NCBI GenBank assembly: GCA_963830365.1
Contig: CAWHMU010000035.1
Span: forward strand, 30,129 to 94,128
DNA length: 64,000 nucleotides
Reading direction: 5' to 3'
Source: an uncultured Chlamydiae bacterium
Lineage (GTDB): Bacteria; Chlamydiota; Chlamydiia; Chlamydiales; Parachlamydiaceae
The position numbers and the translations under genes were made by a program. The notes under the pieces are model-generated. The model did no database searches and had not been told where the DNA came from. It saw only the letters and a list, made by a program, of their open reading frames with translations. This document shows, piece after piece, positions 3,290 to 62,022 of this stretch; positions within the stretch are counted from its first letter, which is position 1; each line of letters opens with the position of its first letter.

Positions 3290-3318
3290 TTTCGCCACCG
3301 AGCCACCGAGACACAGAC
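3290..3318. repeat. Single arm of the CACAGAG-type palindromic repeat family
   Basis: CACCGAGCCACCGAGACACAGA resembles the arms at 9995-10020 and, reverse-complemented, 54814-54840. Confidence 0.55.
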
Positions 3319-3545
3319 AAACAATAGGGCTAAATCTTTAATGTTCTCCCGTTCTAATTAGGTAGCATATTCGGCCATCTAATTCACTTCTTCCTCAGTG
3401 TTGTGCAAAAACAAACAGGATGCATATGATCGCAAGCGGCAGGGTTGTCAACATAAACCCATGATGCGATGGCTGTGAGGTATCCCCCTTTCTTTGCCTT
3501 AGCAATCCGATGGGTGGATATTGATCTCAGAAAAGGTTTCCTGCT

Positions 3546-3698
3546 TTAGATGGCGCCTTCGGGAGTATTTACGTAGGGAGAGCCTGCCCCGGGATATTGA
3601 AAAACATGTTGAAAGAAGGCAGGTTGATAAAAATAGAAGTATACCAGCAAGAGAAGCAGCCCTACCCAAACCAAAATAATCCATGATTTCGTCATCAT
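3546..3698 (-). CDS. Small single-pass membrane protein, 50 aa
   Basis: Manual translation MMTKSWIILVWVGLLLLLVYFYFYQPAFFQHVFQYPGAGSPYVNTPEGAI*. Purine-rich AAGGAAAAGGGGGA immediately upstream; starts 18 nt after the emrB stop. Confidence 0.5.
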   Translation of the reverse strand: MMTKSWIILVWVGLLLLLVYFYFYQPAFFQHVFQYPGAGSPYVNTPEGAI

Positions 3699-3716
3699 TC
3701 CCCCTTTTCCTTATGT

Positions 3717-5255
3717 TTACTCTCCGACCACGACATCCTTGCTCATGACCACGCGCTTACAAAGCATTGGCAGCGGTGTAATCAAAAGGAATATCCAGGC
3801 CCCCATCCATGAAAGATCATTGGTCGATAGCATGAAGGCTTGCTGATCTACTAGCCCATTTATGAGGCGGTTAACAACTTCCGGCACAAAGTTGATGTTT
3901 ACATGACTCAAAGACTCATATAACTGGGTCGTTAATGGTCTATATGCTGTCACATCCTCACTCAATCGCTCGTGATGGAAAATTTGCAGACGGTTCCACA
4001 TTTGTATCGATATTGAAGTGCCAAAACCTGTACCAATTAAAATCCGGATGAAATTAAACAAGCCGGCAGCACTGGCATAGCGTTCTTTAGGAATTGCGCC
4101 TAAAGACAACTGTACTAAAGGTAAAAAGAAGATTACCAGTCCAAAGCCTTGATAGAAACGTGCCAGCATGACATCAAACAGGGAGGCTTGCGAAGTTAAA
4201 CTGGCTTGATAGAAAAAACCCAGCGCAAAAAGAAAAAAGCTCGTGGCCGCGACTTTGCGCAGATCGAAGCGGTTCAGATTTTTTCCCATCGGCGCCGTTA
4301 ATAAAATGGATGCGATCCCGATGGGAGCCACGGCCACGCCCGCCCAAAACGCTGTATAAGATTGTACCGTCTGTAGCCAGAGGGGAATGACGACGGTGCT
4401 GCCGAAGATTAACAGATAGGCCACAGTAACGCAGAATGTGCCGATAGCGAAATTGCGATCTTTGAAGAATGAAAAGTCTACGATAGGGTATTTTTGGAAT
4501 TTCGTCCATATCGCAAAATAAGCCAGCGAGATGACTGAGATAGCCGTCAAGGCGATGATGACATTGGATTCAAACCAGTCCAGATCTTTGCCCTTATCAA
4601 GCATAATCTGTAGGCAACAGACCCCTGTGGACAGCAAAATAAGCCCCCACCAATCGATGGGATTGCGCACAAGCTTGCTTTCGTGTTTGCTAAGCATCGC
4701 CCATATCACCGTGGCCGAAAAGATGCCGATAGGGACGTTGATATAAAAGATCCACGGCCAGGAATATACATCCGTCAGATAGCCCCCCAAGATAGGCCCG
4801 ATAACGGGAGCTACAATGACAATAATAACCCAGAATCCCAATGCCACCCCTTGCTTTTCGGGAGGATTGAAATCCATGATCAAGCTTTGAGACAGAGGAA
4901 TTAAGGAGCCGGCCACAGCTCCCTGCAAAACCCTGCATACTACCAACATGGTTAAGCTGGAGGAAAATCCGCACAGGAAAGACATCAAAGCAAACAGCAA
5001 GACAGAATACACGAACAGGCGCACCCGCCCGAAATAATCGGAAAGCCATCCTGTAAGGGGTAATACGATGGCATTACTGACGGCAAATGATGTAATTACC
5101 CATGTGCCTTGATCGACACTGACGCTGAGATTTCCGGCGATATATGGGATAGCCACATTGGCAATTGACGTATCAAGCACCTGGATGAATGTGCCCAAGC
5201 CTAAAGCCAGATTGATCAGTATCAGGCGTCCGCCTTTTTCGTATTCTTGAGCCAT
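3717..5255 (-). CDS. emrB: DHA2-family MFS multidrug efflux permease (EmrB-like)
   Basis: LDTSIANVAIPYIAGNL, WVITSFAVSNAIVLPLTGWL, WPWIFYINVPIG motifs; many transmembrane segments; adjacent to an EmrA-like gene. Confidence 0.92.
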   Translation of the reverse strand: MAQEYEKGGRLILINLALGLGTFIQVLDTSIANVAIPYIAGNLSVSVDQGTWVITSFAVSNAIVLPLTGWLSDYFGRVRLFVYSVLLFALMSFLCGFSSSLTMLVVCRVLQGAVAGSLIPLSQSLIMDFNPPEKQGVALGFWVIIVIVAPVIGPILGGYLTDVYSWPWIFYINVPIGIFSATVIWAMLSKHESKLVRNPIDWWGLILLSTGVCCLQIMLDKGKDLDWFESNVIIALTAISVISLAYFAIWTKFQKYPIVDFSFFKDRNFAIGTFCVTVAYLLIFGSTVVIPLWLQTVQSYTAFWAGVAVAPIGIASILLTAPMGKNLNRFDLRKVAATSFFLFALGFFYQASLTSQASLFDVMLARFYQGFGLVIFFLPLVQLSLGAIPKERYASAAGLFNFIRILIGTGFGTSISIQMWNRLQIFHHERLSEDVTAYRPLTTQLYESLSHVNINFVPEVVNRLINGLVDQQAFMLSTNDLSWMGAWIFLLITPLPMLCKRVVMSKDVVVGE

Positions 5256-60651: not shown

Positions 60652-60751
60652 TCCAAGCGCTATGCACCTCTATAGCCAGCTTTCATAGTGATCGACCGGG
60701 CTGATCAAAATTCATTTACTTTATATTTTAACTGGCCCATATATTCGGAAT

Positions 60752-61300
60752 ATGAGCCCTCTTCCCCCGCGCACGCCATTCTCCTTGACTGACAGCTTTT
60801 TGACCGACAAGGCCATGAAGAACCACTCTCCGGAGAAAATGGATGGTGTTCATCCATTTGGGGTTCCGGCTGCGCAGCCACTGCGCCAGATGCCACCAAG
60901 ATCCGGCAAGAACTGCTATCACCTGTTTAAAACACTGCAGAAGAATTTTTTAGAGGATAACGACTGGTATCGGCAAACTTCCAATGGCCAGACACCGCCT
61001 CTTGAATCAGAACAGGCTCCAGACAGTATTTCAACATTGCAAGACGGTGTAGACATCGCCTCCATATCTTCGGCTGCTAGCACATCCCTCACACTTTGTG
61101 CTAAAGACAGAGATACCTCATCTTCTATTGAAAGAGAACAAACGATCGAAGGGCAAAACAGCCTAAATACTAAAAAAAACCCGCCCCACCAAGCAGAGAA
61201 AATTCCAGCTAAACCAACAGCAACAGTCCTTAAAACAAGTCCACCCAAGACACCTCCAGCCATACCGAACAAGGAAAGCGCTTGCTGCATCATCTGCTAA
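60752..61300 (+). CDS. Disordered putative effector ending in CaaX (CCIIC)
   Basis: 182-aa ORF with Lys/Pro-rich tail, ending KESACCIIC*. Confidence 0.7.
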   Translation: MSPLPPRTPFSLTDSFLTDKAMKNHSPEKMDGVHPFGVPAAQPLRQMPPRSGKNCYHLFKTLQKNFLEDNDWYRQTSNGQTPPLESEQAPDSISTLQDGVDIASISSAASTSLTLCAKDRDTSSSIEREQTIEGQNSLNTKKNPPHQAEKIPAKPTATVLKTSPPKTPPAIPNKESACCIIC

Positions 61301-61525
61301 GCTCAAGTCTTCAAAAACTCATGGCGTAATGGACTGCACTTATGTCACTGTTTCTGAGCTAAGGCCATGCACGAACTCACCACGTTAGTCTTGCATGTTT
61401 ATGTAGAATTGTTCTTGCAAGGAGAACGAAATTTAGCACCAAACGCAACCGAAATATATGAACTTGGCCGTAAGCCACTACCATCACCCTTTGGAATCTT
61501 ACAGCGTCAGCCAGCAACTACTTAT

Positions 61526-62022
61526 GGGTCATCACACAAATGAGTGGTTGACAGAGATGACTACTCAAGAACTTATGACGTGAAAGGACTTTGAGGGTTG
61601 GGGTCAGGCTTGTGATTTGTGATTTGAAAGTCCTAAATACATTAGAAAGCCCGACTCCTTTCAAATCGCAAATCGCAAGCCTGACCTCAATCCGTTCAGC
61701 CAAAGCCTACATTATGAGTTTTTGAGGCTCATCAGGTTTTATAGGACCCACCTAGAAAAGGATGCGTAAAAATGGGAAATGTAGGTAACACATCGGAGCA
61801 AAAATAACAGGATATTAGGATGGACAGGATGAAAGATTTAAACTTTAGTTTGCCAACTTTGCGATTTACGTAGGTCTTGGGTGATCATCCTATTTTTCAT
61901 ATCCTGACCATCGTAATATCCTGTTATTTTTGCTTGCTCTTTTCTCTTTACAAGTTCTGCAAAACCGGAAGAACCGTTTTTGAGATGTTAGCTCTGTCAA
62001 CCACTCGTTTGTGTGATGACCC
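61526..62022. mobile_element. 497-bp non-autonomous element (MITE) carrying internal palindromes
   Basis: 31-bp terminal inverted repeats GGGTCATCACACAAA(T/C)GAGTGGTTGACAGAG (30/31); 8-bp direct repeat CTACTTAT at 61518-61525 and 62023-62030; internal hairpins at 61596-61693 and 61797-61934. Confidence 0.9.

Follow-up and report, generated by a model that had tools for sequence, protein, structure and literature searches.

REPINs, hairpin-forming doublets of repetitive extragenic palindromes (REPs) associated with a RAYT gene for a Y1-type HUH transposase, are the closest described counterparts of the repeats considered here. Passages in three accounts describe RAYTs as not mobile themselves and as remaining in one and the same extragenic space (PMC3116915; 10.1101/2021.07.10.451892; PMC3733652). 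A second family, PDDEXK_3 or GxxExxY, is listed in a table row of PMC3424549 with function unknown and multiple transfers, and part of another report shows one GxxExxY gene that a different tool called cas4 (10.1101/2021.01.26.428298). The present analysis concerns a 64,000-nucleotide stretch of DNA (the window) from an uncultured member of the Parachlamydiaceae, which is the end of contig C35 of a source genome (G000) of 2.73 Mb in 48 contigs, estimated to be 82% complete. A weak OmcB-like match (E 5.5e-7, below the cut-off, with no such match in any of 14 control genomes) agrees with a chlamydial origin. Repeat arms are scattered through the window. With moderate confidence it is concluded that the arms are the ends of a cassette that carries a GxxExxY gene and spreads with assistance from the encoded nuclease, and that gene-less hairpins are likely deletion derivatives of that cassette.

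A preliminary description of the window had reported related arms at sites from about 3290 to 61797, and inspection of the sequence finds arms at every site that it listed. The arms, read directly from the sequence, are built of tandem 7-9-mers. A genome-wide count gives 269 doublets of CACAGAG (CAC), 34 of CGCAGAG, 34 of CGCAAAG and 54 of ACAGGAT, against none for CAC and 0-2 across words in three order-4 Markov simulations, so that the arms are strongly over-represented. The commonest 15-mer of the genome, CACAGAGGCACAGAG, has 175 copies, and the commonest arm subtype is ACCAC (230 vs 69). The arms were also said to be nearly always intergenic, which is borne out (CAC 298/300, CGC 51/53, CGCAAAG 34/35 and ACAGGAT 54/54, vs approximately 23% for random placement) with a crude gene caller that under-calls genes (76% coding). 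The arms group into 224 clusters, in which 63 neighbouring CAC pairs point inward and 69 outward. Rfam, searched at the gathering score, matches nothing in the window except two tRNAs, and hence no known structured RNA at the arms. One sequencing run contained 7% of the arm words, its contigs being too sparse for polymorphism to show, and no RNA run was among those listed with them. Elsewhere in the genome (C20:4615-6705), inward CAC hairpins that are almost identical follow one another in tandem over 2.1 kb.

The source genome contains two GxxExxY genes (PF13366/TIGR04256), designated L001 and L002; both score above the curated cut-offs and both lie within arms. L001 is flanked by inverted ACAGGAT arms, and L002 sits within an array of nine AACACAGAG pairs. 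In the array that follows L001, each unit combines the arms with a diverged version of the final ~60 nt of the gene, and this connects gene-less units with the cassette. The same design recurs widely. With a score of at least 16, inverted flanks were found at 47 of 71 GxxExxY loci in the chlamydial phylum and at 39 of 79 in other phyla, compared to 3 of 389 ordinary genes and 2.6% of mismatched pairs; 12 of the 17 other phyla sampled have positive loci, and one GxxExxY locus with inverted arms was found on viral contigs. Across 400 genomes of the phylum (G005 not scored), PF13366 is carried by 157 overall, by 51 of the 53 with a CAC doublet and by all 32 with at least five copies. At L013-L110, the upstream arms frequently extend into the GxxExxY frame, so that they code for the start of the protein. 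Twenty-five matches to the L001 protein are present in G424, a genome that is 68% complete.

Enzymes acting from outside the window, either a RAYT or a GxxExxY-type nuclease, had been put forward as candidates, and it is the second that the loci support. That the arms are REPINs served by a RAYT of the genome is very unlikely and largely refuted. G000 does have nine PF01797 (Y1) matches, the doublets, tandem clusters and nesting resemble the REPINs of the part of PMC3116915 that treats them, and Y1 genes are enriched in arm-rich genomes (23/32 vs 168/400 overall). However, none of the nine Y1 genes is adjoined by arms; they are flanked by other repeats or by none, with one lone CAC arm ~780 nt from L011. 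Nine of the 32 arm-rich genomes lack Y1 altogether, including the single-contig G393 (43 copies) and G099 (20 copies), and neither a GTAG nor a CGTC tag is present in the arms, which consist of tandem words. REPs that bear such tags occur in G000 separately from the arms. The nine Y1 matches (L003-L011) are associated with several distinct repeat families; L006 and L007 are two Y1 domains in a single 292-residue frame, and upstream of both L008 and L010 lie heptamer hairpins, of which the genome has 110 arms.

Comparison of filled and empty sites places the cassettes at different loci in related genomes. The nearest relative compared is G415 (SerRS 86% identical), and since the relatives differ at the genus level, junctions are unreadable to the base. 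The ~1.2-kb L001 cassette splits oppA from oppB, with an arm overlapping the oppA stop codon; five of five relatives have only a short junction there, with no cassette, and in G415 a gene of 71% identity is found elsewhere together with the same arms. The ~2.3-kb L002 insert lies between HIT-like and isochorismatase-like genes (labels by sequence reading), at a junction that is empty in all three relatives with both neighbours in view, and genes 87% and 80% identical occur at other loci. In G383, a 41% identical gene is located one junction beyond the L002 site. No insertion sequence (IS) ends are seen beside the two G000 cassettes, and no regular duplication either. The preliminary proposal of a mobile, apparently undescribed repeat system, with a candidate enzyme encoded outside the window, is supported; a restriction of the system to chlamydiae is not.

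Cassettes can also be carried by IS elements. In G335, 12 copies of an IS have a cassette after the transposase stop, while 18 sister copies at 73-74% identity are without it, figures that rest on 30 of 38 matches. The G335 carrier has an IS end on both sides of the cassette, with 12 of 14 letters alike by eye. In G380 and G249, the GxxExxY gene is the passenger of another IS in the 18 copies covered, out of 20. The carriers in G335 and in G380/G249 are presumably IS5.

The arms themselves have been taken up by miniature inverted-repeat transposable elements (MITEs). Three MITE families in G000 end in terminal repeats of IS type and are bounded by exact 8-bp duplications, and 71 of 300 CAC arms and 11 of 54 ACAGGAT arms sit inside such duplication-bounded elements. 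The MITE at 61526 shares its ends with a 1327-bp ISL3 element that has five duplication-bounded copies in the genome, and the ends of the MITE at 61726 resemble a second ISL3. No parent IS for the MITE family at 48213 and 54613 was found in the genome; a 1300-bp pair considered as the parent was rejected as a chance match in a housekeeping gene. The movement of arms as MITE cargo is ordinary transposition, and the repeats are a mixture of inward hairpins and MITE-carried cargo. The single repeat family of the preliminary description is not supported, as three hairpins in the window and a truncated fourth site are IS-type MITE cargo with 8-bp duplications. ISL3-type ends and 8-bp duplications also surround a 466-codon gene at C29:8711-11111 and C42:67789-70007, which are possible cargo transposons.

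The placement of arms relative to genes bears on what they do. Within 60 nt of a gene, arms number 75 of 231 on the 3' side and 8 of 191 on the 5' side. When arms within 150 nt after a stop codon are considered, 82 of 103 start in the first 60 nt, compared to 5 of 20 GTAG-type REPs and 2 of 19 heptamer repeats. This bias could stem from selection instead of targeting. One alternative is that the arms are hairpins that are retained behind stops for a role at the RNA level, in processing, stability or termination, and that owe their spread to gene conversion and to hitch-hiking on IS elements, with the nuclease as a passenger. The pile-up after stops, the arms in MITEs and the cassettes that ride IS elements all fit it, as does the content of the corresponding junctions in G415: 12 of the 14 conserved arm junctions there are without these arms, and 9 of the 14 have a long hairpin, mostly of another family, vs 16 of 74 controls. 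These G415 hairpins point either to shared hot junctions or to replacement in place. An RNA-level role with a passenger nuclease is nonetheless unlikely, because both cassettes of G000 are insertions specific to the lineage and no IS ends are seen next to them, because inward elements are without duplications, and because the arm word tracks the protein clade at the locus, which is needless for a passenger. Long hairpins of a GTGCCC hexamer fill G415 junctions, such as that orthologous to 3193-3717, where G000 has CAC elements; no partner gene for them was found in the compared part of G415.

The inward hairpins have properties of their own. Most of their interiors are unique (for 31 of 40, no full-length copy exists elsewhere), and pairs of other words are frequently nested in them, with ACAGGAT inside 10 of 44 inward elements and just outside in none. 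Target-site duplication is not regular at inward elements, a direct repeat of at least 6 nt being found in 2 of 57 (shuffled 3.3%); a low-score test gave a weak excess (8 of 44 vs a mean of 3.2 and a maximum of 7). Partner arms are alike beyond the shared word (0.40 vs 0.29 inside, 0.43 vs 0.31 outside), a likeness reached in 0 of 1000 shuffles. That partner arms are closer to each other than to the arms of other loci suggests arm-to-arm copying. Such likeness, together with unique interiors, tandem arrays and nesting, would also be expected if the nuclease only maintained or resolved hairpins, by cruciform cutting and arm-to-arm conversion, with no insertion and with spread left to ordinary recombination between arms. 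This explanation is distinctly improbable, as it leaves unexplained the new insertions at junctions that are just 1-40 nt long in relatives.

The arm word and the protein vary together at the locus. In a quick tree of 73 GxxExxY rows, of which 40 were hand-picked to cover the types and 21 were unlabelled, GAT words require 5 changes vs 13.1 when shuffled and AAG words 3 vs 6.8. A single starred clade of 18 rows contains each of the 14 GAT-arm rows, and a single starred clade of 13 rows contains each of the 7 AAG rows. Any GxxExxY gene is present in nine of nine ACAGGAT-rich genomes and in 20 of 23 CGCAAAG-rich genomes, many of which are incomplete.

Several observations weigh against a cassette moved by its own nuclease. 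The match between word and clade is not seen at the level of genomes, either for ACAGGAT-rich genomes with the GAT clade (3/9 vs 20/64) or for CGCAAAG-rich genomes with the AAG clade (11/23 vs 18/50). As the match fails genome-wide, either clades cross-serve words, or arms outlive the gene, or action in trans is wrong. Three of the 23 CGCAAAG-rich genomes have no match to the L001 query, and the 82% complete G000 assembly has no cognate gene for its ACCAC, CGCAAAG and CGCAGAG arms. The mostly unique interiors of inward elements are unlike copies of one master, and a six-frame profile search found no protein remnants inside the hairpins. In the set from other phyla, 19 of 79 loci score in direct orientation too. 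Kin are non-independent in the co-occurrence counts, and thus the p-values of those counts are given no weight. The multiple copies of GxxExxY in G380/G249 and G335, considered as proof of self-mobility, were rejected as such, since they are IS passengers. Finally, no fold match of the protein reached an E-value of 0.001.

The protein is predicted to be a Cas4/RecB-type PD-(D/E)XK nuclease. It comprises ~125 residues, and its structure model is a confident one, with a pLDDT (predicted local distance difference test) of 94.5. The best Foldseek matches are Cas4 SSO0001 and lambda-type exonucleases (4ic1, 4r5q, 3syy, 3slp), with E-values of 0.002-0.04, probabilities of up to 1.00 and a template modelling (TM) score by query of ~0.5. 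In the family alignment, D68, K80, Q92 and E28 are invariant, and E78 and Y96 are nearly so. The QxxxY motif is of the RecB-like kind. A sequence search of solved structures returned no matches, and with PADLOC anti-phage models no family matched either protein at an E-value of 0.01.

A mechanism can be proposed on this basis. The GxxExxY protein would cut at hairpins formed by the arms, and host repair would copy the cassette, or gene-less derivatives of it, to new sites behind stop codons, in many cases within a hairpin of earlier origin. The nuclease may act in trans, the locus-specific symmetry may stem from arm-to-arm copying, and some hairpins would then be captured and amplified by IS elements and MITEs. 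More broadly, and only tentatively, there may be a transposase-free class of mobile DNA across many prokaryotic phyla, in which a Cas4/RecB-like nuclease of ~125 residues moves its own arm-bounded cassette and gene-less hairpins to sites immediately behind stops without target duplication, and which competes with RAYT- and four-helix-bundle-linked repeats over shared junctions by entering or displacing the hairpins already there. If true, a large nuclease family of function unknown would gain a role, one of the commonest intergenic repeat classes in environmental chlamydiae and in other phyla would be explained, and REP-like repeat populations could be kept by a non-HUH enzyme. If encoded by the enzyme, insertion behind stops without operon disruption would be useful. 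The very small size of the enzyme, and a likely substrate that adjoins its gene, make the claim directly testable.

The preliminary description also held that the arms mark the boundaries of accessory genes, and a role as a recombination scaffold that bounds and shuffles such genes was part of that suggestion. In the synteny comparison with G415, which covered 1.57 of ~2.4 Mb, yielded 554 orthologues and allowed 685 of 1975 junctions to be classed, conserved and broken junctions number 14 and 64 with arms, and 260 and 314 without repeats. The raw excess of breaks (64/78 vs 314/574, p 2e-6) would favour a scaffold, as would the 9946 and 16254 sites, which adjoin blocks missing from the syntenic contig of G415. 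However, the excess vanishes at matched gap length (gaps of at least 100 nt, p 0.057; at least 200 nt, 11/63 vs 32/125 conserved/broken, p 0.37), so that against this one relative no enrichment at synteny breakpoints remains. Other repeats at gaps of at least 200 nt behave alike (7 conserved, 24 broken), and junctions with one orthologue account for 53 of 211 (25%) where arms are present vs 173 of 802 (22%). No ordinary genes were found between arms in G000, where, besides one GxxExxY gene, only a spurious-looking open reading frame (ORF) is bracketed by them. A scaffold is therefore highly improbable as the function of the arms. A small boundary effect may exist, as gap matching partly conditions on the element itself and one relative was used.

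The near-absence of arms from the island of sugar-nucleotide and methyltransferase genes at 17546-43347, noted in the preliminary description, holds. It is expected, given that the island has just four listed gaps of at least 150 nt and that 21% of such gaps are armed genome-wide. The trace near 38200, previously held doubtful, is probably a real decayed outward CGCAGAG pair (38191..38260, end approximate): in a profile scan, the sites at 38191/38226 score 23.7, compared to a training minimum of 23.3 and to values below 0 for unrelated sites in the island. Nearly all island genes are unmatched in the compared part of G415, while a single G415 contig shows synteny with both smc-serS-M18 and the gene at 43357. 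An ISAs1 transposase (40444-41994) lies within the island, and an IS1634 element with 27-bp inverted ends (62290-64000) lies at the contig end, with a 21-bp tandem repeat of 2.7 copies (62163-62218) a short way ahead of it. The statement that no mobilising enzyme is encoded in the window needs correction in that these two transposases are present. As drivers of the arms both were rejected, since neither is tied to the arms and the IS1634 ends are unrelated.

The individual elements of the window illustrate the mixture. Upstream of smc, on the plus strand, a decayed one-sided CAC arm and a decayed ACAGGAT arm occupy 3294..3430, so that the arm reported at 3290 is present only as a decayed, one-sided copy; the orthologous G415 junction holds another hairpin, of the GTGCCC-hexamer type. 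At 9947..10181 (folding z -18 for 9940-10190), three inward pairs are nested, CGCAAAG outermost, CACAGAG (9993-10138) in the middle and ACAGGAT innermost. This element starts 54 nt after the stop of an ORF for a GMC oxidoreductase C-terminal domain, and no target-site duplication is seen around it. On the 3' side of the M18 peptidase gene, 16279..17349 is a tandem array of a 267-bp unit (x3.3) followed by a 181-bp unit, with CGCAGAG and AACACAGAG arms, the CAC arm being of the subtype that surrounds L002. Beyond the island, 44818..44892 (plus strand) is, by MITE comparison, a truncated copy of a ~250-bp ACAGGAT-carrying MITE with one terminal repeat and one arm. An outward CGCAGAG pair lies between convergent GNAT and hexapeptide genes (47391..47493), and another is found at 52858..52995. 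The latter is present as reported but is not wholly intergenic, its left arm (52858-52884) overlapping the last codons of ORF 49385-52921. The last 21 codons of this 1178-residue ORF, which matched no Pfam or NCBIfam family, derive from the CGCAGAG element; within 48560-52921 it is preceded by a SycD/LcrH-like chaperone gene (below cut-off).

The MITE at 48213..48359 has a GGCGTTGTTCACC-type terminal repeat, an exact 8-bp duplication and an outward CACAGAG hairpin inside. A second copy of the same family (54613..54758), also with an exact 8-bp duplication, is inserted in an inward CACAGAG element at 54313..54841 (folding z -10.5), which contains a CGCAAAG pair (54415-54603) as well and adjoins the 3' side of an aminotransferase stop. 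The ISL3-derived MITE at 61526..62022 (497 bp), identified by its shared ISL3 ends, has an 8-bp duplication and holds a heptamer hairpin (61612-61676) and a nested MITE of 250 bp (61726..61975). The nested element has its own 8-bp duplication and an inward ACAGGAT pair (61808-61923), one arm of which matches the arm adjoining L001 perfectly across 28 nt.

The elements at 48213, 54613, 61526 and 61726 resemble IS-derived MITEs, as these are defined in a passage of PMC3184786, in having terminal inverted repeats and an 8-bp duplication. Unlike MITEs, the inward elements and cassettes lack IS ends, regular duplication and near-identical dispersed copies, and the MITEs carry arms as internal cargo only. 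The protein resembles Cas4, RecB and lambda exonuclease in its D..ExK and QxxxY pattern and in its fold match, but unlike Cas4 it has no conserved iron-sulfur cysteines in the alignment, is only ~125 residues long and is seen in no CRISPR context. The passage on GxxExxY in PMC3424549 gives no link to repeats or mobility, and no description of a GxxExxY-repeat link was found in the literature searched, whose coverage excludes most subscription papers and supplements. A likeness also exists to four-helix-bundle (PF05635-like) genes: L012 on contig C36 of G000 and its G415 homologue L143 are bracketed by inverted ATGGAC arrays, and gene-less ATGGAC hairpins occupy the same type of junction, although the protein and the words differ from those of the GxxExxY system. 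The PF05635 match of L012 is below the Pfam cut-off, and this may be a parallel gene-plus-repeat system.

The strongest resemblance is to REPIN-RAYT systems. In both, extragenic inverted doublets form hairpins, tandem clusters and nesting occur, one or a few enzyme genes are flanked by their own repeats, and repeats adjoin or supply stop codons. The arm system differs in that its enzyme is predicted to be a PD-(D/E)XK nuclease and not a Y1 HUH transposase, in that its arms are tandem 7-9-mers with variable interiors and no GTAG/CGTC tag instead of short palindromes, and in that, unlike a RAYT gene, the GxxExxY gene changes locus between relatives in the genus-level comparison. The arm system works like REPIN-RAYT but, lacking three of its defining features, is not a member of it.

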